Assembly (NCBI GenBank): GCA_041665625.1
Contig: JBAYIK010000001.1
Coordinates: forward strand, 68,587 to 132,586
DNA length: 64,000 nucleotides
Source: Minisyncoccota bacterium
GTDB lineage: Bacteria > Patescibacteriota > Minisyncoccia > Phycocordibacterales > XYD1-FULL-46-19
Reading direction: 5' to 3'
The notes under the pieces are model-generated. The model made no database searches. It was not told where the DNA came from and worked only from the letters and a program-made list of their open reading frames with translations. The position numbers were made by a program, and so were the translations under genes. This document shows, in pieces, positions 41,193 through 61,788 of the stretch (position 1 is its first letter; each line of letters opens with the position of its first letter).

Positions 41193-41304
41193 TTATCTTC
41201 TAATAATAGACTTTTTGTGGCCGAAATTAAAGGGCTAAAAGTCTTCTTTATTTAAACTTAAATCTGTGGTAGTATTTAAAGACAATTTAATATTAGAAGT
41301 AGCC

Positions 41305-41450
41305 TAAACCAGTGAGTAATCGCTGGCATGGTGAATAAGCCCAGTCAAACGTAAAGAACCCAACATGTGGGGCCGTTTGACTGGCTGTATCGGGAAACCG
41401 ATGCAGAGGGCGCAAGCTCTCACTCACGTGTTGGGCTTTTTGGTTTCTAA
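41305..41450 (+). ncRNA. candidate structured RNA (unknown family) with GNRA hairpin and long-range stem ending in a T-tract
   Basis: GC-rich 145-nt island in an AT-rich intergenic region. ccagtcaaacg/cgtttgactgg 11-bp stem, atcgg-GAAA-ccgat tetraloop hairpin, cccaacatgtg pairing with cacgtgttggg followed by ctttttggttt. Confidence 0.3.
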
Positions 41451-43639: not shown

Positions 43640-43801
43640 TTTCGTCGCTATTAAGCACGTAGGTATAGGGCCAAAGATTTGGCAGTGACTATTCTCGCAT
43701 ATTCTTAGGCTAGTCGGCCGTGATATCTTAGAATATGTCCCAGCGATATATTCGCATCTCTACATCTACGCACTGGATAGCGACGAATGGGTTTTTCCTC
43801 T

Positions 43802-44479
43802 TTACTTAAGCCCAACAAACGAGCTGATCTGTTCGCTGGCCTCTTGCCTTGTCATGGTCAACAGAGAACTCAAGGATTCTTCCCTCTCGTTCTCATCGGG
43901 GACATGATCATAGATGAGCTGTGTCAGGTAGTTTTTTTGTCGTTCGCTAATCATAGGTACGCCATCAGACCTTTCTTCTTCTATCTGAATCGGACCGCCA
44001 TAATTCGCTCGATCGTCTAAATCCATGGTGAAGTAAGCGGAGATGTTAGCCGAGCGTATGATTGCCGATAAAAATGCGGATTTCTCAGCGAGCTTAATAG
44101 TCTTGTTTTCGTCATTGTCATTGCGAGATAATGATGCGCATCCACGACCTTCCCCAGCTACTATCCCTGTTGGGTGGTAAATAATGCACTTAAAGGCCAC
44201 TAAATTCTTAGCATCGCTAAAAGAGGCCAAAGTGTCTCGATCAAGCTCAAAACGACTGGTAAAGCCGAAAATTTGCGCAATGCGTTCGCCACCTCCTTTG
44301 CTTAGGACCTTCTTGCCATCAATGACATTGTAGTCTTGGCCTTTTTGGAGAATCGGTAAAACCTTGTCGATAAAATATCTCCTTTTTAACAACATCAAGT
44401 TAACACCTTGCTTGAAGTAATCTAAAGTATTAAGAACTTCACTAACTCTAATTGCTCCTGGTTTGTTAAGAGTTTCCAT
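43802..44479 (-). CDS. hypothetical protein
   Basis: 225-aa ORF, no motif recognised. Confidence 0.45.
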   Translation of the reverse strand: METLNKPGAIRVSEVLNTLDYFKQGVNLMLLKRRYFIDKVLPILQKGQDYNVIDGKKVLSKGGGERIAQIFGFTSRFELDRDTLASFSDAKNLVAFKCIIYHPTGIVAGEGRGCASLSRNDNDENKTIKLAEKSAFLSAIIRSANISAYFTMDLDDRANYGGPIQIEEERSDGVPMISERQKNYLTQLIYDHVPDENEREESLSSLLTMTRQEASEQISSFVGLK

Positions 44480-44491
44480 AACGATTATTAA

Positions 44492-44788
44492 TTAGTTTTT
44501 TGCTAATGGCTGGACCTGGAGCCGGTGAAAAAGGGCAATCCGTTTCGGGTATTTTTTGAGGACTTGGCCGTCCTGATCTTTCTTCTCTACCATAGTTAGA
44601 CTGGAGAGAGACTTCTCGCCTTTTTTGACGACAAAGCCTAACTTAATCCATTCACGAAAGGTTCTAGCGTCTTGATAGGGGTCAAAGGACTCGGCAACTT
44701 CTTCTGAGAAGCGTTGAGCGATCTGTGCCTTCACGTCCTCATAGGTGCGAAGTGACCCACGATAATTTGTCTTAGTTAAAGTGACCAT
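44492..44788 (-). CDS. hypothetical small basic protein
   Basis: 98-aa ORF 12 nt upstream of 43802..44479 on the same strand. Confidence 0.45.
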   Translation of the reverse strand: MVTLTKTNYRGSLRTYEDVKAQIAQRFSEEVAESFDPYQDARTFREWIKLGFVVKKGEKSLSSLTMVEKKDQDGQVLKKYPKRIALFHRLQVQPLAKN

Positions 44789-45105
44789 AATAATTAAAGG
44801 TTAACGAGTAAAGACCTCGCTGGACTAGAGTGAGGAAAGGGGTGAAGTAACCAAGTCATCGACCTATTTCTTAATCACTTCAATTATTTAGTCGATAAAT
44901 TCTTAGGGGGGTACCCGGGGTTGTTCGGTTAACATCCCTAGATTGTGGCTGGTACCATAAGGTAGCGGGGACATTCTCGCCCGTGGCGACTATTTCCAAT
45001 CTCTATTAAAAAGGCCTAATCTGACCACCCTTAGATTAGGGAAAAATTTTTGTAAAAATTTGCCAAAAGTGCTATCATCTTGTCAAGTATGAAGTTATTC
45101 TCATA

Positions 45106-46074
45106 TTGAGGAATAAGGACATTCTCCCAGTTTTTAGTAAACAAAATATGAAAAGTTATTATCGAATAATGCTTGGCCACAGGAGTATCTATGCCGAGGA
45201 TGCGTACAAGGGTAATTTTATCGCTGCCGGCTTTATTAAAGACAAAGACCTGGTTAACCATCTTTTTGACAGTCGTCGCGAGTTCAACGAGGAGTTTATT
45301 CCTATTTTTTTGAAACAAAATCCAGACAAGACAAAAGTTGGTGCTGGTCTTGCTTGTGGAATGCTTTGGACAATTGTCAAAGGTATACAAATTGGCGATA
45401 TTATTCTTTGTCCTGACGGTAAAGGAAATTATTATGTTGGTGAAGTTGTTGGCGGTTATGAGTATCGCAAGGGTGAAATTTTGCCCCATCGTCGGCCTGT
45501 TCACTGGTTTCCAAAAACAATCTCAAGAAACGAGATGAGCCAGTCATTAAAAAACTCAACTGGGGCGATTGGAACAGTCAGTGATATTAGTCGATATTCT
45601 TCTGAATTAGAATCCTTGCTTTCCGGGAATAACCCTCAGGCAATTATTACTGTAGATGACACTATTGAAGATCCCAGTGTTTTTGCTCTAGAAAAGCACC
45701 TAGAAGATTTCCTTGTCCATAATTGGAAGCATACTGAGTTAGGAAAACATTATGATATTTATGAGGAAGAAGGAGAAATTGTGGGACAGCAGTATCCAAG
45801 CGATACGGGGCCAATTGATATTCTGGCAATAAGTAAAGATAAAAAAGAAATATTGGTGGTAGAGCTTAAAAGAGGAAGAATAAGTGATGTCGTTGTGGGG
45901 CAAATTCAACGCTATATGGGTTATGTTAAAGAAGAGTTACTAGAAAAGAACCAGACAGTCCGTGGGGCCATAATTGCATTTGAGGATGATGTCAGGGTTC
46001 ATCGTGCCCTTTCTGTCGCAGCAAATATAGATTTTTATACGTATAAGGTTCATTTTGAATTAAGGAAAAAATAG
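45106..46074 (+). CDS. PUA(EVE)-like N-terminal domain fused to NucS/DUF91-like PD-(D/E)xK nuclease; putative Type IV modification-dependent restriction enzyme
   Basis: N-terminal LWTIVKGIQIGDIILCPDGKGNYYVGEVVGGYEY resembles the EVE/PUA beta-barrel pattern; C-terminal GPIDILAISKDKKEILVVELKRGRISDVVVGQIQRYMGYV matches the NucS-type PD-(D/E)xK core. Real start may be Met at 45148. Confidence 0.55.
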   Translation: MRNKDILPVFSKQNMKSYYRIMLGHRSIYAEDAYKGNFIAAGFIKDKDLVNHLFDSRREFNEEFIPIFLKQNPDKTKVGAGLACGMLWTIVKGIQIGDIILCPDGKGNYYVGEVVGGYEYRKGEILPHRRPVHWFPKTISRNEMSQSLKNSTGAIGTVSDISRYSSELESLLSGNNPQAIITVDDTIEDPSVFALEKHLEDFLVHNWKHTELGKHYDIYEEEGEIVGQQYPSDTGPIDILAISKDKKEILVVELKRGRISDVVVGQIQRYMGYVKEELLEKNQTVRGAIIAFEDDVRVHRALSVAANIDFYTYKVHFELRKK

Positions 46075-46078
46075 GTAT

Positions 46079-48640
46079 ATGACAAACTCTAAAGAAGCAT
46101 CTGCTCGAATTAAGATAAACAAACTGCTTGAAGCCTCTGGCTGGCGTTTTGGAGACGACAAAAAAGGAAAAGCTAATATACAACTTGAGCCAGGAGTTAA
46201 GTATTCCGAGCTTGGCGACGACTTTGAAAACGAAACTCACGGTTTTATTGATTTTCTTTTGCTTGACAAAGATGGCCGGGCGCTTGTGGTCCTAGAGGCA
46301 AAAAAGGAATCGATTGACCCTCTTTCTGCCAAAGAGCAAGCTAGAAACTACGCTCGTAATGTTGGAGCGCGGTTCGTCATTCTTTCTAATGGTAACATCC
46401 ATTATTTCTGGGATACTAAACATGGAAACCCTGATGCCATTTCTCGTTTTCCGACTCAAGACTCAATAACTCAATATGAAAAATACACTCCAAACCCTGA
46501 GGAATTAGCTAATACTTTGGTTGACGAGAACTACATTGCCTTAACTCAAATGCCAGGTTTAGTAAATGACCCTGCTTTCCTAAATGAGGCAACGAGAGTT
46601 GAGTTCTTAAGAAATAATAATTTAAAACAACTTCGACCTTACCAACTGAAGTCAATTAAGGCTCTTCAGGAGTCCGCCATGTCTGGTAATCAACGTTTTC
46701 TTTTTGAGATGGCTACGGGTACGGGAAAGACACTCATTTCGGCGGCTGTTATTAAATTATTCCTAAAATCTGGCAATGCCCGCAGAGTTCTTTTTCTTGT
46801 TGATCGATTAGAACTTGAGGGCCAAGCCTATAAAGCATTTAAAGCTTATCTCGGCCATGATTTTGCTACGGTTATTTATAAAGATAACCGCGATTCCTGG
46901 CAAAATGCCAGTGTCGTTGTTTCCACTATTCAAACTTTTCTCGCTGGCGATCGTTATAAAAAGGAATTCTCTCCTACCGATTTTGAGTTAGTTATCTCTG
47001 ACGAAGCCCATCGTTCTATTGGTGGTAATAGTCGAGCGGTCTTTGAATATTTTGTTGGTTATAAATTAGGTTTAACTGCCACACCTAAAAACTATATCAA
47101 GGGCGTTGACCCTGAGGGGGCGGATGTTCAGAGAGAATATGAGCGTCGATTACTTCTTGATACTTACAAAACTTTTGGCTGTGAGCCGGGCAATCCGACG
47201 TTTACCTATGATCTTCTTCAGGGTTCAAAAGACGGATTTCTTATTCAGCCGACCTTGGTTGATGCTCGAACAGAAATTACAACCGAGCTTTTGTCAGAAA
47301 AAGGCTATGCGGTTCATTCCACAACCGAGGAAGGAGAGAATGTCGATCAAGTCTTTAATGAGCGACACTATGAGCGAAAGTTCTTCAACGAAGAAACTAA
47401 TATTGCTATGTGTAAGGCCTTTATTGATAATGGCCTTTTTGACCCAGTAGCACAAAAACAGGGTGTTCAGCTTTTTGGTAAATCAATTGTCTTCTGTGTC
47501 TCACAAAAACACGCTTCGAGAGTGACCAATATTCTTAACAAATTGGCGTTTGAGAGATGGCCAGATCAATACGGTGAATCAGATTTTGCTATGCAAGTGA
47601 CCTCGCAGGTATCCAGTGCTCAACAGATGACAGTTAATTTCTCTAATAATCGTCTCGGTGGTCAAGTTAAGAAACCAGAAGGCTATGATTCTAGTAAGAC
47701 ACGCATTGCGGTAACTGTGGGAATGATGACGACAGGTTATGATTGCCAAGATTTGCTTAACATCGCTTTAATGCGCCCCGTTTTTAGTCCTGCCGACTTC
47801 GTCCAGATTAAGGGACGCGGGACCAGAAAATGGTTATTTGAGTATAAAGATTATGTTGACAAGGAAACAACTCAGATAGCTAAAGAAAGATTTAAATTCT
47901 TTGATTTCTTTGCCACTTGCGAATACTTCGAAGAAGGATTTCCTTATGACGAGAAGATAAAGCTCCCACAAATTAAAAAAGTTGTTGAATCTGAAACTTC
48001 GGGGGATAAAGCTTCGTCTCAGGGAGAATTTGTTGATGAAAAAGGTAACAAGATCTTTAAAGGACCAATTGATTTGGCTACCTCGGACGAGATTGCCTCT
48101 GTCTCCGAGACTGTTATCGGGGAAGAAGGTATGAGAATTGACCGTGAAGGCTTCAAAAGAGCCGTCGAAGAAGATATTCTCGGCAACGAGAAGCTTAAGA
48201 ATATGTGGGAGAACGGCGATACAGAGGAAGCGGAAGACTTTGCTAAAAAAGAGATTTTTGATAAGCCTAAATATTTCTTGAACCTCGATAAGATTCGTAG
48301 GATTTTTGGCGTTGATCGTCGGGTGACTGTTAAGGAATTTTTGCAGGTAGCCTTTGGTGATAAAGAAACATTTGAGATGAAGGACGATCTCTTGGAGTCC
48401 GAATGGCAGAAGTTCGTCGATATTTATGATGTTGATCAACCTCATTATCAACCCGCGAAGAATTTCTTTAAAGCCTATATCTCAGATGAAGAAGTCCGCG
48501 ACATTGTTAAGCGCAATCAACCTGCCGAATTCTATCATTGCCCGTCCTTCGACTTCGAAGATTATCAAAAACTAAACGGATATAGAGTGATCGTCCCACA
48601 ATATGTCCGTGACTATGCCTATCAATTAACAAACTTATAA
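46079..48640 (+). CDS. hsdR: Type I restriction enzyme R subunit (HsdR), compact
   Basis: N-terminal PD-(D/E)xK (DFLLLDKDGRALVVLEAKK), SF2 helicase motifs I (MATGTGKT) and II (VISDEAHRS), canonical KINKLLEASGW N-terminus. Confidence 0.85.
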   Translation: MTNSKEASARIKINKLLEASGWRFGDDKKGKANIQLEPGVKYSELGDDFENETHGFIDFLLLDKDGRALVVLEAKKESIDPLSAKEQARNYARNVGARFVILSNGNIHYFWDTKHGNPDAISRFPTQDSITQYEKYTPNPEELANTLVDENYIALTQMPGLVNDPAFLNEATRVEFLRNNNLKQLRPYQLKSIKALQESAMSGNQRFLFEMATGTGKTLISAAVIKLFLKSGNARRVLFLVDRLELEGQAYKAFKAYLGHDFATVIYKDNRDSWQNASVVVSTIQTFLAGDRYKKEFSPTDFELVISDEAHRSIGGNSRAVFEYFVGYKLGLTATPKNYIKGVDPEGADVQREYERRLLLDTYKTFGCEPGNPTFTYDLLQGSKDGFLIQPTLVDARTEITTELLSEKGYAVHSTTEEGENVDQVFNERHYERKFFNEETNIAMCKAFIDNGLFDPVAQKQGVQLFGKSIVFCVSQKHASRVTNILNKLAFERWPDQYGESDFAMQVTSQVSSAQQMTVNFSNNRLGGQVKKPEGYDSSKTRIAVTVGMMTTGYDCQDLLNIALMRPVFSPADFVQIKGRGTRKWLFEYKDYVDKETTQIAKERFKFFDFFATCEYFEEGFPYDEKIKLPQIKKVVESETSGDKASSQGEFVDEKGNKIFKGPIDLATSDEIASVSETVIGEEGMRIDREGFKRAVEEDILGNEKLKNMWENGDTEEAEDFAKKEIFDKPKYFLNLDKIRRIFGVDRRVTVKEFLQVAFGDKETFEMKDDLLESEWQKFVDIYDVDQPHYQPAKNFFKAYISDEEVRDIVKRNQPAEFYHCPSFDFEDYQKLNGYRVIVPQYVRDYAYQLTNL

Positions 48641-48643
48641 TAA

Positions 48644-51193
48644 ATGAACGCTGACACCAAAAGACATATCGATTCGGCTCGCCAAGTGTTAGTTGGGGTG
48701 GTTCCAAATCCGACTTCGCAGATAGACCAGATCACGAACGCGTTGATTTATAAGTTTATGGATGATATGGATCAGTCCGCGATTAAGGCTGGCGGTGAGC
48801 CTTCGTTCTTTGTTGGTAGTCTTGAGCGTTATGCTTGGACTCGCTTGATGGACGCTCGCATTGGCAATCAAGAGCGAATGAATCTTTACTCCGAAGCTCT
48901 ACTTAAATTCTCTGAAGCAAAACAACTGCCAGAACTTTTTAGAGGAATTTTTAAATCTGCCTTCTTACCTTATCGCTCGCCTGAAACTCTAGGTTTATTT
49001 CTTAAAGAGATTGATTATTTCGACTATTCTCATCCAGAAGAACTTGGTAATGCTTATGAATATCTGCTGTCGATAATGTCCTCTCAAGGTGACGCGGGGC
49101 AATTCCGTACCCCCCGTCACATTATCGACTTCATTGTTGACGTGGTTAACCCTACCAAAGACGATAAGGTTCTCGATCCTGCTTGTGGGACCGGTGGCTT
49201 CTTGGTGAGCTCCTATAAACATATTCTTGAACAGCATGATGGTAAAGATGACCCAGACAAGAAGGAAAAATCACTTACTCCCGACCAGCGCCGAGCTTTG
49301 GCAAATAACTTTGAAGGCTATGACATCGACCCGGGGATGGTCCGTATTGCTCAAGTTAATATGTATCTTCACCAATTTAAGAATCCAAAAATCTTTCAAT
49401 ATGATTCTCTCTCAAGTGATGAGCGTTGGAACGATAAGTTTAGCGTAATCTTGGCTAACCCACCCTTCATGTCTCCTAAAGGTGGGATTAAACCGCACAG
49501 TAAGTTTAGTATTCAATCGAGCCGAAGTGAGGTGTTGTTTGTTGATTATATAATGAATCATCTTCAGCCCAAAGGCCGAGCTGGTATTATTGTCCCAGAA
49601 GGTGTCATCTTTCAATCGGGGACTGCTTATAAACAACTCCGCAAGAATCTTGTCGAAGATGGTTTATTTGCTGTTGCCTCTTTGCCGTCAGGAGTTTTTA
49701 ATCCTTATGCCGGTGTCAAAACAAGTATCCTCTTTTTCGATAATGAGATCTCAAAGAGGACAAATGATATTTTGTTTATAAAAATTAAGAACGATGGCTT
49801 TGACTTGGGAGCCCAGAGACGACCAATTGATAAAAATGATTTGCCTGGGGCAATTAGTTTCATCAACCAATACAAAGAATATCTTGGTAATGATAAAGCT
49901 GCTCTGGCTAAACTATGGGCACATACAGGGGAAGACAAGTTCTTTTCTGTTGAGAAGGCAAAAATTTCTGAGGACGGTGACTATAATCTTTCTGGTGATC
50001 GTTACCGAGTCGCGACTGACTATTCTAACTCTAAGTGGCCGATGATAGGATTGGGAAAATTAGAAGAAGAAGGGAAAATTGAATTTTTAAGAGGTCAAGG
50101 ACTATCAAAGAGTGATTTAATTGAAGAAGGTAAAAGTAAGTGTATCCACTATGGCGAAATTTATACCTTATATGATCCCATTATTAAGAATGTCATAAGT
50201 AGGACTGATTTTGAAGGTAAGGTTACGTCATTAAAAGGTGATGTTCTTGTCCCCGCAACGACAACTGCTGATGCGATGGGGATTGCCGTGGCGAGATCAT
50301 TAAATGAGCAGGGGGTGATAATTGGGGGTGACATAAATATTATCAGAACGAGAAATAAGTTTATGTTGGCCGATTATCTAGCTTTATTAATTAGTAACCC
50401 TCCATTAAAAATAGAACTTTCTAGGTCTGCTAAGGGTGCAAACATACTCCATTTGTCAAACAGTGATTTAAAAAGGCTTCTGATTCCTCTCCCTCCGCTT
50501 GAAATCCAAGAGCAAATCGTCTCAGAGTTGGACGGCTACTCAAGTATAATTTCCGGCGCTAAACAAATCTCTCAAAACTGGAAACCTAAAATCGAGATTG
50601 ACCCTGAGTGGGAGGAGGTTAAGATAGAGGAAATCTCTGATTTAATTACAAAAGGCACAACGCCGACCACTAACGGCGGTAAATTCACGGAAACAGGAAT
50701 CAATTTTATAAAAGTTGAAAGTTTGTCTGAAACTGGTGAAATTGACCTTAAAAAAACATCTTTTATTTCTGGTGAGTGCCATGAGTCACTAAAGCGAAGT
50801 CAATTAAGAGAGAATGACATATTGTTTTCCATCGCTGGTACGAAAATGGGATTATCGGCTATCGTTTCTAAAAATATTTTACCTGCAAACACAAATCAAG
50901 CCTTGGCAATTATAAGATTAAAAAATAATACTGACCCGCAATATGTACTAAATTACTTGAGGTCTATTGCTTTAATATCGCTAATTGAAAACATTAAGGT
51001 CGGAGTTGCTCAGTTTAATCTCTCATTAAAACAAGTAGGTGAACTAGAAATACCTTTCCCTCCTCTCGAAACCCAGAAACAAATCGTAGAAAAAATCGAA
51101 GCTGAACGCATCTTGGTAGACTCTGCCAAAAAATTGATTGGGATTTATGAGAAAAAGACTAGGGAGGTTCTAGCTAAGCTTTGGGAGAAATAG
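48644..51193 (+). CDS. hsdMS: fused Type I methyltransferase-specificity subunit (HsdM-HsdS in one polypeptide)
   Basis: N-terminal half: N6-adenine MTase motifs DPACGTGGFL (I) and LANPPF (IV). C-terminal ~400 aa: two target-recognition domains each followed by a conserved LPPLEIQEQIV / FPPLETQKQIV helix. Confidence 0.8.
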   Translation: MNADTKRHIDSARQVLVGVVPNPTSQIDQITNALIYKFMDDMDQSAIKAGGEPSFFVGSLERYAWTRLMDARIGNQERMNLYSEALLKFSEAKQLPELFRGIFKSAFLPYRSPETLGLFLKEIDYFDYSHPEELGNAYEYLLSIMSSQGDAGQFRTPRHIIDFIVDVVNPTKDDKVLDPACGTGGFLVSSYKHILEQHDGKDDPDKKEKSLTPDQRRALANNFEGYDIDPGMVRIAQVNMYLHQFKNPKIFQYDSLSSDERWNDKFSVILANPPFMSPKGGIKPHSKFSIQSSRSEVLFVDYIMNHLQPKGRAGIIVPEGVIFQSGTAYKQLRKNLVEDGLFAVASLPSGVFNPYAGVKTSILFFDNEISKRTNDILFIKIKNDGFDLGAQRRPIDKNDLPGAISFINQYKEYLGNDKAALAKLWAHTGEDKFFSVEKAKISEDGDYNLSGDRYRVATDYSNSKWPMIGLGKLEEEGKIEFLRGQGLSKSDLIEEGKSKCIHYGEIYTLYDPIIKNVISRTDFEGKVTSLKGDVLVPATTTADAMGIAVARSLNEQGVIIGGDINIIRTRNKFMLADYLALLISNPPLKIELSRSAKGANILHLSNSDLKRLLIPLPPLEIQEQIVSELDGYSSIISGAKQISQNWKPKIEIDPEWEEVKIEEISDLITKGTTPTTNGGKFTETGINFIKVESLSETGEIDLKKTSFISGECHESLKRSQLRENDILFSIAGTKMGLSAIVSKNILPANTNQALAIIRLKNNTDPQYVLNYLRSIALISLIENIKVGVAQFNLSLKQVGELEIPFPPLETQKQIVEKIEAERILVDSAKKLIGIYEKKTREVLAKLWEK

Positions 51194-51196
51194 GCC

Positions 51197-51988
51197 ATGT
51201 TTAATGAAGTTGTTATGTATTTATTACAAATTCTGCAGAAATATCAAGCTCAAGATCTAACGGGTTATGCTGGTCAAATAATTCAACTCAAAAATATCCT
51301 TTATGATTGGGCAAATGGCTGCCTTCTCGAAATAAAAGATTCCGGCTCGAGGGCCAAAGGGACAGCGATTTCTTTGGCTTCAGATGTTGATTATTTAATT
51401 TCTCTTTCTAATGGGTGTAACCAAAGTAATGGGGGGTTAGAGTTTACTTTTAACCAACTCTTCCAACATTTGAAAGATCAGGGCTATCAAAACGTTAGGA
51501 AACAGAACGTTTCAACAAGAATTACCCTAGGCTCTCTTGAGATAGATATCACTCCAGCGACAAAACAGCTCGGTAATACTAGCGACCATAGTATTTGGAG
51601 ATCCAAGAACGGCACATGGCAAAAAACTAATATCCAAAGGCACATAACGGACGTTTCCCAGTCAGGAAGAATAAATGAGATAAAACTAATTAAAATTTGG
51701 AGAGAATTAAATAACTTGGACTTTCCTTCAATCTATCTCGAATACCTGATAATAAATAATGTTTTATTAAACAAGTCCACCGATGTCGCGAATCTTGGTA
51801 ACAATGTCTGGTATATCTTAACTGAATTGGCAAAAGACTACGGAAATCCGTTGTTTGCTAGGGTTGTTGATCCCGCAAATTCTAATAACATCCTTTCTGA
51901 ATTGTTAAGTCAAACAGAAAAAAATAAAATTATAAGCATGGCCAAGATATCCTCGAGCCAATCTAACTGGAACCAGATTCTCTGGTAG
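51197..51988 (+). CDS. Pol-beta superfamily nucleotidyltransferase, SMODS/CD-NTase-like
   Basis: GS-x11-DVD motif (IKDSGSRAKGTAISLASDVDYLISL) and downstream third acidic strand LEIDITPA; start 3 nt after the hsdMS stop. Confidence 0.55.
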   Translation: MFNEVVMYLLQILQKYQAQDLTGYAGQIIQLKNILYDWANGCLLEIKDSGSRAKGTAISLASDVDYLISLSNGCNQSNGGLEFTFNQLFQHLKDQGYQNVRKQNVSTRITLGSLEIDITPATKQLGNTSDHSIWRSKNGTWQKTNIQRHITDVSQSGRINEIKLIKIWRELNNLDFPSIYLEYLIINNVLLNKSTDVANLGNNVWYILTELAKDYGNPLFARVVDPANSNNILSELLSQTEKNKIISMAKISSSQSNWNQILW

Positions 51989-51997
51989 CCTTTTACT

Positions 51998-52687
51998 ATG
52001 AGTAAAAAAATTAACATTAGAAAATTATTTATGGCGCTTGATGAAGAAATGCGCCTAAAATTATCGAGTAAAATTGATGAGATTTATCATCCTACCTCAA
52101 AGGGGAGCGAGTCTGAGTTAAACTGGATCGGGCTATTAAGGACTTATTTACCAGATAGATATACTGTCGACAGTGGGTTTGTCGTTGATCATGAGGGTAA
52201 TATTAGTGATCAAATAGACGTTATTATATATGATCGTCATTTTACCCCCTTTATTTTTAGGGGTGAAAATATTGTTTACATTCCAGCAGAAGGTGTCTAT
52301 GCGATTTTTGAGGTTAAACCCCACTTTGGCAAAACCAATTATGATTATGCCGTTAAAAAATTAAACAGTGTCAAGACCTTAAAAAGAACCTCTGCTGAGT
52401 TTGCTCACATTATGGGTAAAGATAAAAAAGATCTTTTTGAAATTATTGGAGGAATCCTGACAGGAGAAAACAAAGGTAAAAAATATTTTAATGAGCTAAA
52501 TGTTAATTCCAAGCTATCAATAGCCCTTTCGCTAGATAGTGGAGTAAAGATAATTGACGGAGATCTAATGGAGGTCCAAAGTAAAGGACCCGTTCTGGCT
52601 TTTTTCTTGCTCAAGTTAATTAAAAAACTTCAGACACTTGGTACTGTCCCCGCCCTAGAGGTGGATAAATATCTAGGAGTTTGTTAA
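51998..52687 (+). CDS. hypothetical protein with PD-(D/E)xK-like core
   Basis: DQIDVIIYD ... AIFEVKPH spacing fits the D...(D/E)xK restriction-endonuclease fold; also an RTSAEFAH (Rx6H) segment. Confidence 0.4.
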   Translation: MSKKINIRKLFMALDEEMRLKLSSKIDEIYHPTSKGSESELNWIGLLRTYLPDRYTVDSGFVVDHEGNISDQIDVIIYDRHFTPFIFRGENIVYIPAEGVYAIFEVKPHFGKTNYDYAVKKLNSVKTLKRTSAEFAHIMGKDKKDLFEIIGGILTGENKGKKYFNELNVNSKLSIALSLDSGVKIIDGDLMEVQSKGPVLAFFLLKLIKKLQTLGTVPALEVDKYLGVC

Positions 52688-52693
52688 ATACTT

Positions 52694-53428
52694 ATGAACT
52701 CTCCACTTCCTTCATATCTATCGCTTCTGTGTGAAAATGAAGAAGAATTGAGGTATATTTCTGGCCTCCTTGATCAGTTTGATCTTGCTAAGACGTCTGG
52801 GTCATTTCATTTGGCTCTTTTTGCCTACCACCTACTCTTTATGACTTTTGTCTATCAGACGATCTTTAAAATAAAAATTTGGATGCCAGACAGGTTCAAC
52901 GACGCTCTCGTTCAATCGCCATCTGAAAAAAGAAAAAAATATCAGGAGTCTTCATCCGTTTGGGACCTCTCAGAATTTCGGGAAAGTTCAATCTTTGAGC
53001 TTCTTAACCTCCTTCAATCCTGTGAAGAAGAAGTCGTCAGATGTAAAAATATTATTAAGTATCGGAACCGTGGTTTTGGCCATGCGACGGGAGTACTTGT
53101 CTCAGAAGAAGAATTTGGAAAGAAAATAGAAGAATATGACCAGATGGCCTCAGAAATTCATCTATTAACTCATAACGAATTGGCCAAAATATTTGATGAA
53201 TATTTTAAGTCTCTGGATCCTACTCTAGAACAAACAAAAGACGACCTAGAGATTTATCTTATTGGCCCCAACAGGCTGAGTGACAAGGACCTGGAATCTT
53301 TGGCCGCGGAGTGCCTTATCGGAAGGACTGTTCCGCTAGAGAAAAGGAAACAGATTTTTGGGATACTTCAAGACAATTTTAATATGCACATCGAATTATT
53401 AGATTTTAAGCCCGCACAAGACAAGTGA
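52694..53428 (+). CDS. hypothetical protein with one hydrophobic helix and a HEPN-like YRNRGFGH motif
   Basis: FHLALFAYHLLFMTFVYQTIF hydrophobic segment; RNRGFGH resembles the HEPN Rx4-6H motif; no confident family. Confidence 0.35.
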   Translation: MNSPLPSYLSLLCENEEELRYISGLLDQFDLAKTSGSFHLALFAYHLLFMTFVYQTIFKIKIWMPDRFNDALVQSPSEKRKKYQESSSVWDLSEFRESSIFELLNLLQSCEEEVVRCKNIIKYRNRGFGHATGVLVSEEEFGKKIEEYDQMASEIHLLTHNELAKIFDEYFKSLDPTLEQTKDDLEIYLIGPNRLSDKDLESLAAECLIGRTVPLEKRKQIFGILQDNFNMHIELLDFKPAQDK

Positions 53429-54231
53429 CTAGCCCTCACGCATTAAAATTGTATGTTGATGGCTCCGCCTTTAGGAATCCTGGTCATGAAGGTGGCTTCT
53501 CGGTCTTTGCTGAATATCCCGATTCTTTCGGACTCTCGACATTAGAAGTGGCAAATGGGAGTTATGAGGAGACGACAAATAATCGGATGGAATTAAGAGC
53601 TTGTATTGAGGCCTTTAAATTTGCCAGAAAAGAAGTCGAGCGGCTTAAAATTCGCCATGTGATTGTGGTAACTGATTCTCATTATGTTTATAGCAATCAA
53701 TATCGAGCTATCTATTGGAAAAGAGATAACTGGGAGAATAGAGATGGTCGTCCTGTAGATAACCCAGACCTCTGGAAGGAATTTTTATCTCTTAAACAAA
53801 AGGTTAGAGCAAATCTTGAGGTTAACTGGCAGAAAGGAAAAACCACACAAATTCTTAATGCTGTTGATAAAGGAGCAAAACAGGCGGCAAAGGGGATAAA
53901 GACAACTGACTTTGGGTTTAGACGAGGCAAGATCTCAAGGACAAAGGTCAGAGGAGGAGGGATATTGATGTTTCCCGCAAACGGACAGAAAGAGATCATT
54001 AGAGTTTTTAAATATGAAAATAAAGCTATCAACGAGTGGAAGGTTTGTTTTGAATTATACTCTGAAGAGAAAGGCGGGTTTATTTCTAAACACTTTGCCT
54101 ATATACGCTCTCTTGAGAGCCTCCATCGACACGGGTATTATAAAGCTAGTTTTAATGACAACTCTCAGTACCCCCTAATTGAGATCCTTGAGGTGGTAAC
54201 TAGTCCAGAAAAGGGAATCCATCTATCCTGA
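53425..54231 (+). CDS. RNase HI domain fused to an uncharacterised ~120-aa C-terminal domain
   Basis: LYVDGSAFRNPGHEGGFSVF...TTNNRMELRACIEAF...IVVTDSHYV...WKRDNWENRDG are RNase H1 motifs; GTG start overlaps the upstream TGA (GTGA). Confidence 0.7.
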   Translation: MTSPHALKLYVDGSAFRNPGHEGGFSVFAEYPDSFGLSTLEVANGSYEETTNNRMELRACIEAFKFARKEVERLKIRHVIVVTDSHYVYSNQYRAIYWKRDNWENRDGRPVDNPDLWKEFLSLKQKVRANLEVNWQKGKTTQILNAVDKGAKQAAKGIKTTDFGFRRGKISRTKVRGGGILMFPANGQKEIIRVFKYENKAINEWKVCFELYSEEKGGFISKHFAYIRSLESLHRHGYYKASFNDNSQYPLIEILEVVTSPEKGIHLS

Positions 54232-54306
54232 CGACCAACCATCTCCGCAGGGCTTTATTGTATCTTTTGATTTTTAGGTGGTAATATTGGCTAATAAAGA
54301 TGATTT

Positions 54307-55143
54307 ATGTGGCAAAAACTCTCAAAACTGATTAAATTATTGCTTAAGACCATCGCGGTTTTGTTGCTTATTGGCCTTTGGTCTACGGCTTCATACTTTG
54401 CCATAAATTACTTTGCTAAGCTGACAGAAGAGAAAAATGACTGTAATATCTCAGGGATTAGCTTGCACGGGGAAGTGGTCACCTATAACAGCGCTGATTC
54501 CTATAACGATAACGGGGACCTTGTCCGTGATCAGACCTCGGCCGATGAAGTTCTCTATATTGTTAGGCAGGCTCAATCTAATGACGATATAAAAGCTATC
54601 GTTGTCGATATTGATTCTGGTGGAGGATACCCAGAAGCGGGGGAAGAGATGATGAATGCCTTCAAGCAGTCTAAGAAGCCCGTAATAGCCTTTATTCGGG
54701 GCCAGGGGCTCTCTGCCGCTTACCTTGCTGCTACTGGTGCTCAGACAATATTCGCTTCTAAATTCTCCGATATAGGAAGTATTGGAATCACGGGTTCGTA
54801 TCTTCAAGAGACAGAGAAGAACAAGAAGGAAGGCTTAACCTATATTGACCTGAGTTCTGGTAAGTATAAGGATACGGGTAATACGGGGCGCGCCTTAACT
54901 CTGGATGAGAAGAAACTATTCATGAGGGATATTAATATCATGTTTAGCTATTTTGTTGAGATAGTGGCTAAGAACAGGAAGATAGACATCACGAAGGTGC
55001 GGGAGATTGCCGATGGTTCTAGCATGCTTGGAGACGCCGCTCTTAAGGCTGGTTTGATTGATCGAATTGGTCTATATCCTGACGTTAGGAAGTATCTATC
55101 TGAGAAGATCGGGACTGAGGCAAAGATTTGTTGGGAGAACTAG
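54307..55143 (+). CDS. membrane-anchored S49-family peptidase (SppA-like)
   Basis: N-terminal TM anchor; S49/ClpP-like core VVDIDSGGGYPEAGEEMMNAFKQSKKPVIAFIRGQGLSAAYLAATGA. Confidence 0.65.
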   Translation: MWQKLSKLIKLLLKTIAVLLLIGLWSTASYFAINYFAKLTEEKNDCNISGISLHGEVVTYNSADSYNDNGDLVRDQTSADEVLYIVRQAQSNDDIKAIVVDIDSGGGYPEAGEEMMNAFKQSKKPVIAFIRGQGLSAAYLAATGAQTIFASKFSDIGSIGITGSYLQETEKNKKEGLTYIDLSSGKYKDTGNTGRALTLDEKKLFMRDINIMFSYFVEIVAKNRKIDITKVREIADGSSMLGDAALKAGLIDRIGLYPDVRKYLSEKIGTEAKICWEN

Positions 55144-55352
55144 CTCCCAATTTCTTCCCCGCTATTGCTGACGACAAAGACAGCTTTTTTGGGATAAAAC
55201 TGTTATCAAGATAGGTTCTAGTGGTGGGAGGATTCCTCTGAGCTAGCTCTGCTGACATTAGGGGCCTTCTTTCGGATAAATCCGCAATTTGGAGGGAAAC
55301 AGAAGCTAAGGAACCCTTTAAAATAACCTTTTATCGTGATATATTATAAAAA

Positions 55353-56150
55353 ATGCCCATCAATAATGTCGATTTTAATTCTCTGGAGGTTAAGGAGTAC
55401 TTGAAAAGGTTGGATCAGGTTATTTATGATATTTTTAGCATTGTTGAGACTCATATTGAGACGAGAACAACTAATATCAATAAAAAATTAGGCTCTTACT
55501 ATCGGGATAGACTAAAAAGATTAGAAGAACTCTTAAATGAGAATTCTTGGGGGAAGAAAATAGTTAAGAGCAATAAGAAGCCTCGGACAGATCTGGTTGT
55601 CTTATTGGAGGAAAGAGACGAGTTAATTCTAAGAAAAACCAAGAAAGACTTATCTCTGATCTTGTTAGAAATTCAGGTATTAAGAAATTTGCCTCCAAAC
55701 GAAACAGAGACCGGTGTAGCAGACGAAGATTTAAAAAACTATCTCGAGGGTTTAATTTATGCCCAAAATAATAATTTAGGTATTGGTATTGCTAGCCAAT
55801 ACATAATAAAAAAGGCTGATGGGGAATACCTTTATAACAATAAGCCTATTGTTTTTCATAGTAAAAAAACTGACTACTTCAAATTATTCGATAGTCTTTA
55901 TGATATCACTAATGGAGGGGGAGAAGTCACTTATAGCGAACTTTATCGAGAATATCGCAAACATGGAGGGAAAAAGCCCAAAAAGGGGGAGACTGCGGAT
56001 GAGATAAAACACAAAATCTCAAACTTGGTAACAAGTTTCTTTTCCTTCGTCCGGGTTGACGGGAGAAAAATCTCTAGAGTCAACCTTGGGGGGCGGAATT
56101 TTATTGAGGCAATAACAATTTCAGGTCTTCGTTTTAATAATAAAAGGTAG
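55353..56150 (+). CDS. hypothetical basic protein
   Basis: 265-aa ORF, Lys-rich, no motif. Confidence 0.45.
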   Translation: MPINNVDFNSLEVKEYLKRLDQVIYDIFSIVETHIETRTTNINKKLGSYYRDRLKRLEELLNENSWGKKIVKSNKKPRTDLVVLLEERDELILRKTKKDLSLILLEIQVLRNLPPNETETGVADEDLKNYLEGLIYAQNNNLGIGIASQYIIKKADGEYLYNNKPIVFHSKKTDYFKLFDSLYDITNGGGEVTYSELYREYRKHGGKKPKKGETADEIKHKISNLVTSFFSFVRVDGRKISRVNLGGRNFIEAITISGLRFNNKR

Positions 56151-56287
56151 TTCTTATTTTTGACGACAAGGTTCTTTCTAATTCGACCTATAAGGGTCGT
56201 TTTTTTGTTGCAAACAAAGGGTAAAACGGGGAGAGCAAGAAATCGCAAGAAATAGTGAGAAGCTTTTGAGTATGGAAAAATAACACC

Positions 56288-58159
56288 ATGACAAACAATT
56301 TATCCCTCAACAACAAACGTGAAATGGCTCTTGCCTATGCCGGCTTAGGTTGGAAAATCTTCCCTTGTCACAACACAGGTGGAAATAGGTGCTCTTGTGG
56401 CAACACCAATTGTGACAAACAAGGGAAACATCCAAGAACGCCAAACGGCTTTAAGGATGCGACGAGCGATCCTTTAATAATAACTGATTGGTGGACTAAG
56501 TGGCCAGAGGCCAATATTGCAGTAGCGACGGGCAAGGTATCGGGAATTTCTGTCGTCGATATCGATTGTGAAAAAGACGACACCGGACAAGTTACAAAAA
56601 TGGGGCTTAATGAGGGGCTACCTACAACCCTAATGGCCAGAAGTGGAGGACTTGGATGGCATTATTTTTATCAATATCAAGAGGGTCTAGCAAGTAAAAT
56701 TGGATTTAGAGAATTAGTCGATTTAAAATCCGATGGTGGATATATCATCTTGCCTCCGTCAGACCATAAGTCTGGTAATAAGTATGAATGGCACAGTGAT
56801 TTAGGCAAAAATCTAATAGCACCTTTCCCCGAAGAAATTTTGTTAGAACTTTCTCAATCTAAAGGAACCAGCCAACAATTACCAATTGTTACTACAAATA
56901 ATACCTCGACTGTTCCCTTTGAGATACCAGTGGGCACTCGAAACGGAGCCTTTGCTTCAATTGTCGGGAAACTTGTTAGCCACCTCCCTGTGACTGACTG
57001 GGAATCTTGGGCTAAACCCTTGATCTTTATGGCTAACTCTGGGAACAAAGAACCTTTGCCCGAGACAGAATTACAGAGTGTCTACTCGTCAATTACCCAA
57101 AGGGAGTTGGCAAAAAGAACCTCTTCTCCGACCAAGGGCAAAATTGAAGTACTTAGCGCTAAAGAGTTAGAAGATACAATCTTCCCTGAAGCAAACTGGG
57201 CAATCTATAGTTTTTTCGAGACAGGGACGGTAAACATGATCTCTGCGGAGCCCAATAACTACAAGAGTTGGGTGATGCTAGATGCCGCGGTTTCTCTCGC
57301 TTCCGGACGGCCGCTATTTGGCCAATTTAAGACTGAAAAACAGTCTGTCCTTATCGTTAATGAAGAGGATTATCACTCTCAGCTAAGGACAAGAATGATG
57401 ATGATTGATAAGAATTGGAGTCAGTTACCTATATACTTCGCTATCCAAAATGGGGTAAAACTAATTGATAGCGACATTGAGAAGATTATCAGTCTGGCCA
57501 AAGAAAAGGGGGTTGGTTTCATTATCTTTGATTCACTGCGAAGTCTTCACTCGGCCGAAGAAAACAGCTCGACAGAGATGCAAGCGGTCCTTGATCAGTT
57601 AAAAAAGGTCACTAAAGCTGGTTTTACCGTCCTATTTAGCCACCATAATCGTAAAAAGGGGATTTCTTCTTCTGATAATGGTAATGAATCACGCGGAAGC
57701 TCGGGGATAAACGCGGCCGTTCATGGCCACATAACCTGCGAACCGAAAGAGGAGGGAGGACAAACCTTTTTAATCATCTCTCAGCCAAAACTAAAGGGTG
57801 GTCCCAAGATGGATCCGTTTCGCGTGAGAATTGATCTAAGTAGCGATAAACCCTTCGTTTATGACGGAGTTTACAGCAAGGGGCTGACCAAAAACGAACT
57901 CGAGGAAGAAATAATCAAATTATTAGAATTCCACGAGGGGAAGGGACTAGATGTTGGCCACTTTTTAGCCGCAAATATTGCCGGGGATAGGAGGCTGAGA
58001 GAAACTCTCCGCACAATGTCAGGAGATCAGACGATTACCGCAATCCTCTGGAAAGATGTCCAAAAATCAGGGCTACCTGTGGCTAGTGAAGGGGTTAATC
58101 CCAATGAGAAGTTCTATTTTTTGCCGGATAGCTTAATAAATGATGATATTCCACCTTAA
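56288..58159 (+). CDS. bifunctional primase-polymerase (Prim-Pol) N-terminal domain fused to RecA-like/AAA_25-type domain with degenerate Walker A
   Basis: PrimPol N-terminal signature: GWKIFPC...GKHPRTPNGFKDATSD...ANIAVATG...SGISVVDID. C-terminal RecA-fold layout: FIIFDSLRSLHS Walker-B-like; AEPNNYKS in the Walker A position. Confidence 0.75.
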   Translation: MTNNLSLNNKREMALAYAGLGWKIFPCHNTGGNRCSCGNTNCDKQGKHPRTPNGFKDATSDPLIITDWWTKWPEANIAVATGKVSGISVVDIDCEKDDTGQVTKMGLNEGLPTTLMARSGGLGWHYFYQYQEGLASKIGFRELVDLKSDGGYIILPPSDHKSGNKYEWHSDLGKNLIAPFPEEILLELSQSKGTSQQLPIVTTNNTSTVPFEIPVGTRNGAFASIVGKLVSHLPVTDWESWAKPLIFMANSGNKEPLPETELQSVYSSITQRELAKRTSSPTKGKIEVLSAKELEDTIFPEANWAIYSFFETGTVNMISAEPNNYKSWVMLDAAVSLASGRPLFGQFKTEKQSVLIVNEEDYHSQLRTRMMMIDKNWSQLPIYFAIQNGVKLIDSDIEKIISLAKEKGVGFIIFDSLRSLHSAEENSSTEMQAVLDQLKKVTKAGFTVLFSHHNRKKGISSSDNGNESRGSSGINAAVHGHITCEPKEEGGQTFLIISQPKLKGGPKMDPFRVRIDLSSDKPFVYDGVYSKGLTKNELEEEIIKLLEFHEGKGLDVGHFLAANIAGDRRLRETLRTMSGDQTITAILWKDVQKSGLPVASEGVNPNEKFYFLPDSLINDDIPP

Positions 58160-58244
58160 ACCACGCCTGGCACCTAGCATAACCTAGAGGTTGTTGCCAG
58201 GTGCCAAGTAACTTATTAGGTAAATTAACTAACAAATAAAAAAT

Positions 58245-58838
58245 ATGAATGATTATAGTTTAGAGGTCAAGGAAGAAGAGCTTCTTAAAGAAAAAAGAAC
58301 TCTATGGGATACTCTTGTTAAAAGAGGAGAAGAAATTGGTGTTGAAGATGGGGCAAGAGAGATTGTTGTGGCTCTTAATGCCAATAACCTCCCAACGGCC
58401 TGGTCCTGTGGTGGACATGTTGATACCTCAATCGAGCAAACAGATGATTATTGGCAGAGAAACCCCTGGGTCTATTTTGAGTTATGTGAGCACCATACTT
58501 ACCCCTCAGAAGATTCCGAAGAGGGTCGGGCCTCGGCTGCTCTTTTTGAAGTCAGGAAGGGGATGACAACAGAGGTTCCTGAGCTTATTGAAGAATTTTA
58601 CAAAACAAGAACTCCACAAAATGGAGTTCGGTTAATGTTTTCTAAGGTGGGCGGATTGGATTACTTATATCGACTTGACGCGGTAAGTGATGGGCCAGAC
58701 ATTATAACGGAAGATTGTGACCTTTCTTGTCTGAATCAGAAACTTTTTTACCAACAAGAAGAGATGAGGGCTTTTGCAAAGTTCTTAGAAGATCGCTACT
58801 TATCCCCCTCTCGACCAATTAGTCATGAAAGGGGTTAA
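58245..58838 (+). CDS. acidic hypothetical protein
   Basis: 197-aa ORF, no motif. Confidence 0.45.
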   Translation: MNDYSLEVKEEELLKEKRTLWDTLVKRGEEIGVEDGAREIVVALNANNLPTAWSCGGHVDTSIEQTDDYWQRNPWVYFELCEHHTYPSEDSEEGRASAALFEVRKGMTTEVPELIEEFYKTRTPQNGVRLMFSKVGGLDYLYRLDAVSDGPDIITEDCDLSCLNQKLFYQQEEMRAFAKFLEDRYLSPSRPISHERG

Positions 58839-59072
58839 ATTAGTGGTTAAATTAACTTGATGTTAAAATGAAGAAACTACACGAAGACGATGACAAAATA
58901 GTTAATATTGTGTCCAGCGAAGGGCAACGAGGGTCTTTGTGTAGTAACAAGATGTCTTCTCGTTGCCCTTCTTTGGATTATGAAGATATTGGCGCATCTG
59001 GCTCAGTTAGCGACGCTTACGATATTCTTTTTAATAAAACGGTCGAAGTTATAAATAATAGGAAAATATTAT

Positions 59073-60767
59073 ATGAATCTTATCGCAATTTACGGAAGAG
59101 TATCCACATCGAGACAGGAAAATGAGGATACTGTTGAGAATCAACTACACTCAATAAAGGAATTTGCCGACAAAAAATATCTAACGGATGGTGGTTATCA
59201 AATCATTCGCGAATATACTGATGAAGGGTGGAGTGGTGATTCATTGATTCGCCCAGGGCTTGATAACTTGCGCCAAGATGCCAGGAAGAAAATCTGGGAC
59301 ACAGTTATTATCTATGACCCTGATCGCCTAGCTCGACGCTATTCATACCAAGAACTAGTTATTGATGAACTCAAGGAGGCAGGCGTTGAAGTCTTGTTTG
59401 TTACGATAAAATTACCAGAGAATGATGATGACAAGATTCTTTATGGTGTGCGAGGCTTATTTTCTCAATATGAGAGGGCAAAAATCGCCGAAAGGTTTAG
59501 ACAAGGGAAACTTCGCAAAGTAAGAGAAGGCCATATTTTGGTTAGCGAAGCTCTTTATGGCTATCGTTATGTTCCCAAGGTTGAGGCCCCTGGCTCCGCG
59601 AGAATCCATGGCTACTATGAGATTGATCCCGAAGAGTCAGAGGTGGTAATAAAGATTTTTGATTGGGTGGTAAAGGATAAACTAACCCTTAGAACTATCG
59701 TTAAAAAATTACAAGAAGAAGGAATCAAGCCTCGCAAAAGTATTCGTGGAGTCTGGGCAACAAGCACACTAACAACAATGTTAAGGCACGAGGGCTATAT
59801 TGGTAAGGCTCATTGGGGTAGCTCTTATGCGGTGATACCAGAAAATCCAACCAAAAAAGAAAAATATCGACGTATCAAAAAGAGTAGCCGTCGGGCAAAA
59901 CTAAAAAGTGACTGGTTTATAATAGCCATTCCCCCGATTATCTCCGAAGATACTTTCTTTAGAGCTCGTCATCAATTAGAGATTAACTATAAGATGCACC
60001 CACGCAACAGAAAGAACGACTATCTCTTAGCAGGGATGATTAGGTGTACTTGTGGGAGGTCAAGAGCAGGAGAAGGACCTAAACAAGGAACACATCTATA
60101 CTATCGTTGCAGTGATCGAGTCAGTTCCTACCCTTTACCCCGAACCTGCCACAAAAATGGCTTAAACGCGAGGATTGCAGATCAATTAGTTTGGGACAAA
60201 TTAACAGGTTTAATGGCGTCTCGATCACTAATTACCAAAGAAATTGAGCGCTGGAGTAAAGAAGAGGATGGGCCTAGGGATGTAGTCGATATTAAAGCTG
60301 TCCAGAAGGAATTAAGTAAGTTAAAGAAGGAAGAGGACCGTTACAACCGAGCTTATGCTGAAGGAATCTTTTCAATGGAGAAGTTAAAAGAGTATCTTGA
60401 GCCAGTTAGGGCAAAGATGGCTAAGCTTGAGTCTTCTCTAAGAGAAACAGGAAGAAAGCCACAAGGGAGAAATGAGCTTTTATCAGTGTTATCAGAGAGG
60501 GTTAATGTCGCTTTAGAGGCACCTCTGGTTTTGGCGGAGAATTTGGATTTTGCCACAAAACGTGAGATTATAACTAGGACCATTGATCAAGTTGTGGGCG
60601 ATCAGGAGGAAATAAAGGTTACTGGCCACATTCCACTACAAACTAATGTCGAAGATTATTCAACTAACAATAAAGGGGTATTAAGCCTTATTCAAACAAA
60701 TGTCGAGTTCTGCACTAACGATTGGAATTGTCGGGCTACCAAACGTCGGGAAATCGACGCTTTTTAA
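59073..60767 (+). CDS. large serine recombinase (integrase)
   Basis: Resolvase catalytic domain with nucleophile Ser (IAIYGRVSTSRQ), recombinase domain, Cys4 zinc ribbon (CTCGRS...YYRCSDR), coiled coil; 564 aa. Confidence 0.9.
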   Translation: MNLIAIYGRVSTSRQENEDTVENQLHSIKEFADKKYLTDGGYQIIREYTDEGWSGDSLIRPGLDNLRQDARKKIWDTVIIYDPDRLARRYSYQELVIDELKEAGVEVLFVTIKLPENDDDKILYGVRGLFSQYERAKIAERFRQGKLRKVREGHILVSEALYGYRYVPKVEAPGSARIHGYYEIDPEESEVVIKIFDWVVKDKLTLRTIVKKLQEEGIKPRKSIRGVWATSTLTTMLRHEGYIGKAHWGSSYAVIPENPTKKEKYRRIKKSSRRAKLKSDWFIIAIPPIISEDTFFRARHQLEINYKMHPRNRKNDYLLAGMIRCTCGRSRAGEGPKQGTHLYYRCSDRVSSYPLPRTCHKNGLNARIADQLVWDKLTGLMASRSLITKEIERWSKEEDGPRDVVDIKAVQKELSKLKKEEDRYNRAYAEGIFSMEKLKEYLEPVRAKMAKLESSLRETGRKPQGRNELLSVLSERVNVALEAPLVLAENLDFATKREIITRTIDQVVGDQEEIKVTGHIPLQTNVEDYSTNNKGVLSLIQTNVEFCTNDWNCRATKRREIDAF

Positions 60768-61788
60768 TGCGTTGACTCAGAAGGGGGTGCCGGCTGAGAA
60801 TTACCCATTCTGCACCATTGATCCAGCCGTGGGCATTGTTGCTGTACCAGACGAGAGGGTAGATATTCTCGCTGAGTTCTCTAAGTCAGCTAAAAAAATC
60901 CCCGCAGCGATTGAATTCGTGGACATTGCCGGTTTGGTTAAAGGTGCCTCCGAAGGCGAAGGCTTGGGCAATAAATTCCTTGCTCATATTCGCGAAGTTG
61001 ATGCTATTGCTGAGGTGGTACGTATCTATGAAGATTCTAATATCACGCATGTTTCTAACAAGATTGACCCGATTGATGATATTGAGACTATTAATCTCGA
61101 GTTAATTCTCGCTGACCTACAAACGGTAACCAAAAGAATCAACAACATCGCCCGCGAAGTTAAGCGTGGCGATAAAGCCGAAGTGGCCGAGAACGCGGTC
61201 TTGCAAGACATTAAAAAAATTCTTGAGTCTGGCCAGATGATAAATAATTTTGAGAATACTAAAGAATGGTGGTCAGCTGTCTGGCAATTGAATTTGCTGT
61301 CCTCCAAACCAATTCTTTATGTCTTAAATAAGAAAAATGGAGCTAAAGCAGTAGATACTGCCCCGGTTGAAGAATATTTGAAAAAACTAAAAGCTTGTTA
61401 CGTGATAGTTGATGCCAAAATAGAAGGGGAGTTGTCCGAACTAGAAAAGGATGACAAAGAAGTCTTCAAAAAAGAATTGGGTGTCGAAGATGACGGTATT
61501 AATGACTTGATTAAAGAAAGTTATAAGCTACTTGGCCTAATGACTTATCTCACGACTGGCGAAGATGAGACAAGAGCCTGGACAGTCAAACAGGGTTCAA
61601 CGGCACCTGAAGCGGGGATGGCTATTCACACAGACTTCAAAGAGAAGTTCATTCGGGCTGAAGTGATCAATTGGCAAGACCTCCTCAAGGCCGGTTCTTA
61701 TGGCAAAGCTCGTGAGCAAGGCCTTGTTCGCACCGAAGGCAAAGAGTACATAGTCAAAGACGGCGACGTGATTGAGTTTAAGATTTAA
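60700..61788 (+). CDS. ychF: ribosome-binding ATPase YchF
   Basis: GIVGLPNVGKSTLFNALT Walker A, FCTIDP, TGS C-terminal domain (GDVIEF); start overlaps the integrase 3' end. Confidence 0.9.
   Translation: MSSSALTIGIVGLPNVGKSTLFNALTQKGVPAENYPFCTIDPAVGIVAVPDERVDILAEFSKSAKKIPAAIEFVDIAGLVKGASEGEGLGNKFLAHIREVDAIAEVVRIYEDSNITHVSNKIDPIDDIETINLELILADLQTVTKRINNIAREVKRGDKAEVAENAVLQDIKKILESGQMINNFENTKEWWSAVWQLNLLSSKPILYVLNKKNGAKAVDTAPVEEYLKKLKACYVIVDAKIEGELSELEKDDKEVFKKELGVEDDGINDLIKESYKLLGLMTYLTTGEDETRAWTVKQGSTAPEAGMAIHTDFKEKFIRAEVINWQDLLKAGSYGKAREQGLVRTEGKEYIVKDGDVIEFKI

Follow-up and report, generated by a model that had tools for sequence, protein, structure and literature searches.

A PDC-S02 gene joining a PUA-like domain to a NucS-type nuclease at the head of a type I restriction-modification operon: a candidate modification-dependent endonuclease

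Candidate phage-defence genes (PDCs) were defined by Payne et al. through 'guilt-by-embedding' in BREX, DISARM and type I restriction-modification (R-M) systems, and were added to PADLOC (bioRxiv 10.1101/2024.01.29.577857). That listing means that the PDC-S02 family and its embedding are already catalogued, as a predicted defence candidate without an assigned mechanism. Bell et al. tied EVE, ASCH and DCD domains to type I R-M and reported their fusion to PD-(D/E)xK and McrB modules (PMC7641849), and Yee et al. showed a NucS-like PD-DExK domain fused to another sensor, iEndoIII, to be a working modification-dependent defence nuclease (PMC12191111). Our literature search found no paper on the domain DUF8426 itself. 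We describe here a PDC-S02 gene that combines DUF8426 with a NucS-type nuclease, from a stretch of 64,000 nucleotides (nt) of a Minisyncoccota bacterium (assembly GCA_041665625.1, contig JBAYIK010000001.1, positions 68,587 to 132,586), which we call the window and whose own numbering is used below. With moderate confidence, resting on sequence and modelled structure, we read the gene as encoding a self-contained Type IV-like modification-dependent DNA endonuclease that heads an R-M operon.

The window protein belongs to the PADLOC PDC-S02 / DUF8426+NucS_C family. Two PDC-S02 models, PDLC04799 and PDLC04824, match it end to end with an E-value of about 1e-157 (for PDLC04799, 8.6e-157 over residues 1-307 against a 308-position profile). 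Three more match through the N-terminal half and six through the nuclease only, the nuclease being C-terminal in five of those six profiles; from this pattern we take PDC-S02 to consist of a constant nuclease with variable N-terminal halves. The window protein shows no structural difference from the family, and its type I R-M embedding is like that of PDCs generally. It is a member of a catalogued family within a known architectural class, and because both the class and the embedding have been described, the conceptual advance is modest.

A reading made earlier from the sequence alone had placed the open reading frame (ORF) at 45106..46074 on the forward strand. The frame is present and its stop is right, but 45106 is merely the furthest in-frame TTG; the likely start is the ATG at 45148 (MKSYYRIMLG...), preferred because homologues begin MK(N/S)YYRIMLG. 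A search of 5.8 billion proteins returned at least 8000 scored relatives, the best 120 of them full length and 71-100% identical to the window protein, and so we consider the ORF a real gene. Its TAG stop occupies 46072-46074 and the ATG of hsdR lies at 46079, which confirms the 4-nt distance (gtat) and the position at the head of the operon given in that reading. An AAGGA lies within the 3' end of the PDC-S02 gene, ahead of the hsdR start.

The C-terminal part (residues ~180-308) matches the Pfam family NucS_C (E-value 2.7e-8; score 34.3 bits, cutoff 24), with a weaker match to YhcG_C. The IDILA...ELKRG core singled out in the sequence-only reading corresponds to D224, E239 and K241, and the NucS-type PD-(D/E)xK assignment made there holds up, these three residues being invariant across 52 of 52 homologues. 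Among 28 nuclease-bearing cluster representatives, from a library clustered at 50% identity, D224, Q252 and Y299 are conserved in 100%, and E239, K241 and Y256 in 96%. The nearest nuclease relatives are DNA enzymes: NucS, FokI, N.BspD6I, AspBHI, McrC and LlaBIII.

Residues 1-180 have no Pfam match at E<=0.01 in our profile scan, the EVE (PF01878) and YTH (PF04146) family sequence models do not match the window protein, and searches of PDB sequences with amino acids (aa) 1-160 gave no match; fold prediction was therefore needed. Precomputed Pfam labels on an identical protein in the sequence collection are PF28530 (DUF8426) and PF01939. AlphaFold2 models aa 1-160 with a predicted local distance difference test score (pLDDT) of 80-92 in the full-length model, and of 85.6 with a predicted template modelling score of 0.80 when the domain is modelled alone. 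In fold comparison YTH domains match it as well as EVE domains do, and NucS is not among the 60 fold matches listed. The predicted fold is PUA-like, yet the sequence family is separate, and the kinship to EVE and YTH is structural only. The pattern from which a PUA-like N-terminal domain had been guessed, IQIGDIILCPDGKGNYYVGEVVGGYEY, is found in the protein, and structure prediction and fold matches bear the guess out for aa 1-160. Across 96 divergent copies of DUF8426, Y104 and R116 are conserved in 100%, W120 in 97%, E153 in 95%, H114 in 94% and D84 in 92%, and F46, Y4 and Y106 are also among the best-conserved residues. Such a set of aromatic and charged residues is what a nucleobase pocket would need, and Y104, H114, R116 and W120 may line a base-binding pocket. 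A domain of the modified-base-reader type, as Type IV membership calls for, is present.

DUF8426 also occurs with other partners. Searching 1.84 billion cluster representatives by HMMER with query residues 1-185, we found DUF8426 in 994 clusters. Among the best 150 of these, Pfam identified NucS_C in 25, YhcG_C in 9, PDDEXK_4 in 4 and McrB-type AAA_5 in 4 (one of these also with DUF4357 and MrcB_N), followed by HEPN_Swt1 and HSDR_N_2 in 2 each and by Mrr_cat, Mrr_cat_2, GmrSD_N, HNH_2 and others singly. The partners are largely effector modules of Type IV restriction, with DUF8426 in the sensor position.

At least 555 loci of the family occur among 185,579 species-representative genomes. We sampled context around the best 80 of these matches (61-76% identical, on GTDB contigs, one genome per species), which span Patescibacteria, Bacteroidota, Proteobacteria, Planctomycetota, Chloroflexi and others, as well as Nanoarchaeota and Methanosarcinales. 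After clustering of neighbouring ORFs and a Pfam scan of one representative each, the four dominant neighbour families are HsdR, HsdS, HsdM and a YgjP-like metallopeptidase. Same-strand R-M genes lie within two genes at 43 of 79 loci (41 type I, 2 type III). Where both flanks reach at least 5 kb, R-M genes are nearby at 25 of 42 loci, and the 17 that have no R-M gene within two genes show unrelated, often housekeeping neighbours. The slot varies: 19 copies sit between hsdS and hsdR, 9 at the operon head and 12 at the tail, several of them bounded by contig ends, and two copies head type III operons. Embedded copies overlap their neighbours by start and stop codons (4 nt with hsdS) or lie 1-10 nt away. 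At least three type I families, and type III, serve as partners, and every R-M partner found has an adenine-type methylase.

In 24 loci sharing one operon type, the mean pairwise identity of PDC-S02 is 67% (range 61-96%), against 46% for HsdR and 48% for HsdM, and the fetched loci include both bacteria and archaea. Spearman coefficients are 0.29 for PDC-S02 against HsdR and 0.23 against HsdM, compared with 0.84 for HsdR against HsdM; since pairs are not independent, only the contrast among these figures is meaningful. We take the gene to be a cassette passed from one R-M operon to another, not a co-evolving subunit.

Two other origins were considered and rejected. Phage origin is ruled out by the near absence of the gene from phages: a search of 50,697 phage records gave no match, and one of 2.9 million viral contigs gave only 3. 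In embedded loci the 4-nt overlap with hsdS and the 1-10 nt to hsdR leave no space for element ends, which rules out a homing nuclease, whether selfish or mobile.

The mechanism we propose is as follows. DUF8426 would bind a modified base, probably flipped into the pocket of Y104, R116, W120 and H114, and the NucS-type domain would then cut double-stranded DNA nearby. The enzyme is probably dimeric, both the dimer and the base flipping being expected by analogy with NucS/EndoMS. The cassette is found time and again inside R-M operons of type I, and at times of type III. In the window it probably shares a transcript with hsdR, and the translation of the two genes may be coupled. A single transcript would in that case restrict unmodified DNA (through the type I system) as well as DNA whose modification evades type I restriction. 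As far as sequence and predicted structure go, the Type IV function first suggested for this gene is supported.

Likenesses to described enzymes are partial. The EVE-HNH enzymes such as VcaM4I (PDB 6yex) are PUA-superfamily Type IV enzymes, but their nuclease is HNH where that of the window protein is NucS-type PD-(D/E)xK, and its reader belongs to DUF8426, a sequence family of its own that has no match to Pfam EVE. END-Mag, one of the END nucleases (PMC12191111), shares a NucS-like nuclease with an exchangeable modified-base sensor, and its sensor and DUF8426 are both also found fused to McrB-like GTPases; however, the sensor of END-Mag is iEndoIII/Ogg-like (an inactive EndoIII), a domain unrelated to the PUA-like DUF8426, and END-Mag has demonstrated anti-phage activity, unlike the PDC-S02/DUF8426 family.

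Several points weigh against a Type IV enzyme. Some PUA-like folds bind RNA, as in YTH, PUA and ASCH, or free nucleotides, as in PUA-Cal-HAD, HEPN_Swt1, matched by two of the 150 representatives above, is an RNase family, and the conservation across phyla is unusual and is not predicted by simple phage-driven diversification. In addition, one PDC-S02 gene, of a subfamily not stated, which a cold-seep study cloned into E. coli B, did not protect the host from T4, T5 or T7 (bioRxiv 10.1101/2024.09.26.614923). The main rival, which we hold to be unlikely, makes the protein a guard or second-line effector tied to R-M, whose nuclease would cause abortive infection. Its PUA-like domain might sense N6-methyladenine (m6A) nucleotides or fragments from the degraded, methylated host chromosome, or the protein might stay latent in the type I complex until a phage anti-restriction protein disables the complex, as with PrrC. 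The adenine-type methylase of every R-M partner, the YTH fold matches as good as those to EVE and the tight gene coupling all fit, as does the position, since many PDC-S02 loci use the same slot between hsdS and hsdR as PrrC in the EcoprrI type Ic locus. Yet PrrC is almost exclusively R-M-embedded, whereas only ~60% of PDC-S02 copies adjoin R-M genes and ~40% of long-flank loci lack them; the ABC-ATPase and anticodon-nuclease domains of PrrC are both missing from the window protein (Pfam gave NucS_C and YhcG_C only, and no PADLOC PrrC model matched). Weak co-variation with HsdR and HsdM and the variety of R-M families disfavour a specific protein-protein partnership, and most DUF8426 partners are DNases of the Type IV repertoire. 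The motifs WWGWW and TPxYY of PUA-Cal are missing, which rules out membership of the same PUA family as PUA-Cal-HAD. A reading in which the m6A recognised by DUF8426, whether on free nucleotides or in pieces of DNA, comes from the co-encoded methylase of type I or III, or in which the Hsd complex keeps the protein latent, strikes us as rather unlikely; if true, the protein would be the nuclease counterpart of PUA-Cal-HAD or PrrC, and its conservation well above that of its R-M neighbours might be explained.

The points against each of three further explanations make them less likely. An accessory subunit that brings specificity or a nuclease to the type I enzyme, so that HsdR-driven restriction reaches modified DNA, would fit the operon embedding, with its short gaps or overlaps to hsdS and hsdR, and Bell et al. 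propose such a role for stand-alone EVE and ASCH genes in type I loci (PMC7641849). The PDC-S02 protein, however, has a complete catalytic nuclease of its own, many copies are solitary, co-variation with the Hsd subunits is weak and the window HsdR retains its own D...EAK motif, so that we judge this role improbable. The last point, an intact nuclease motif in HsdR (FIDFLL...VVLEAKK), also rules out PDC-S02 as a replacement for a degenerate HsdR nuclease. An RNA-directed toxin, in which the PUA-like domain would read a modified tRNA or rRNA base and the PD-(D/E)xK domain would cleave RNA, could draw on the RNA binding of YTH, PUA and ASCH domains and on the two HEPN_Swt1 fusions; with DNA enzymes as the closest relatives of the nuclease and mostly DNases as partners of DUF8426, we give it little credence. 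Least credible of all is a NucS/EndoMS mismatch-repair endonuclease (PDB 2vld, 5gke), in spite of the NucS_C match and of database names. The NCBIfam NucS equivalogs stay below their cutoffs (41.7 bits where 216 are required, and 27 where 252 are) and align with the C-terminal domain only, and the window protein has an EVE/YTH-like N-terminal domain in place of the mismatch-binding one of NucS; on these grounds NucS orthology is ruled out, and the genomic context of the family is one of defence, not repair. Public names for family members are 'endonuclease NucS' and 'endonuclease NucS domain-containing protein', and at JGI 'restriction system protein'; the NucS name misleads, because the nuclease domain alone is common to both.

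Should the Type IV reading be right, DUF8426+NucS_C would be a very widespread modification-dependent nuclease family and a source of candidate reagents for mapping DNA modification, and the locus would be a clear case of modification-dependent and modification-blocked restriction co-expressed from one operon. Cultured copies of the family exist on Acinetobacter plasmids (WP_058952590.1, on pAP2044-1), in the order hsdM-hsdS-[PDC-S02 gene, 60% identical]-abi-hsdR-sprT. Features of the window locus are collected in Table 1.

Table 1. Features of the PDC-S02 gene and its R-M operon, in window coordinates
Feature	Position	Strand	Basis
DUF8426 + NucS_C gene (PADLOC PDC-S02), 308 aa	45148..46074	+	ORF scan, homologue starts, profile matches
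Two overlapping sigma-70-like promoter matches	45050..45107	+	Consensus match only; within the 360-nt intergenic region upstream
Predicted PUA-like (EVE/YTH-like) domain, aa 1-160, = PF28530 DUF8426	45148..45627	+	Predicted fold; precomputed Pfam label
Low-confidence interdomain linker, aa 161-179, pLDDT <50	45628..45684	+	AlphaFold2 model
NucS-type PD-(D/E)xK nuclease, aa 180-308	45685..46071	+	Pfam, residue conservation, structural relatives
Catalytic D224	45817-45819	+	IDILA motif
Catalytic E239	45862-45864	+	ELK motif
Catalytic K241	45868-45870	+	ELK motif
QxxxY motif, Q252/Y256	within nuclease domain	+	
hsdR, EcoAI-like type I restriction subunit	46079..48640	+	ResIII, HSDR_N_2; NCBIfam restrict_EcoAI
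Fused hsdM-hsdS, 849 aa	48644..51193	+	N6_Mtase and two Methylase_S stretches; N6-adenine methylase and two specificity domains

The PDC-S02 gene is carried by a type I R-M system made up of hsdR and hsdMS. The gene order PDC-S02, hsdR, hsdMS is common to the window and to a locus (L020) in a metagenome-assembled genome of Nanoarchaeota, which has the same pairing of an HsdMS fusion with an EcoAI-like HsdR, at 45% and 51% identity respectively. In the window hsdMS is separated from a gene for a 244-aa protein (52694-53428) by a two-gene CBASS, with a SMODS cyclase (51197-51988) and a NucC-type effector (51998-52687), while at L020 (13457-16547) the homologue of the 244-aa gene comes straight after hsdMS. 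This gene order and the lower G+C content of the CBASS pair (35.8% versus about 40%) suggest that the pair was inserted into the R-M cassette at a later time. The 244-aa protein has no match in Pfam, PADLOC or NCBIfam; the next gene overlaps its gene by 4 nt, the two occupying 52694-54231, and encodes a 268-aa protein with an RNase H domain at aa 6-155 and a C-terminal extension of ~110 aa without a family match.

The defence genes lie in an apparent integrated element of about 43700-60800, with peptide deformylase resuming at 61792. The element includes a weakly ArdC-N-like 98-aa gene (44492-44788, reverse strand), a Prim-Pol/AAA_25 primase-helicase (56288-58156) and a large serine recombinase (59073-60764), and its G+C content is 40.4%, compared with 44.3% on the left side. 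Just upstream of a 170-aa gene without a family match, the Rfam LOOT RNA motif is matched over its full length (41301-41421, forward strand), at 87.6 bits where the gathering score is 46.4.
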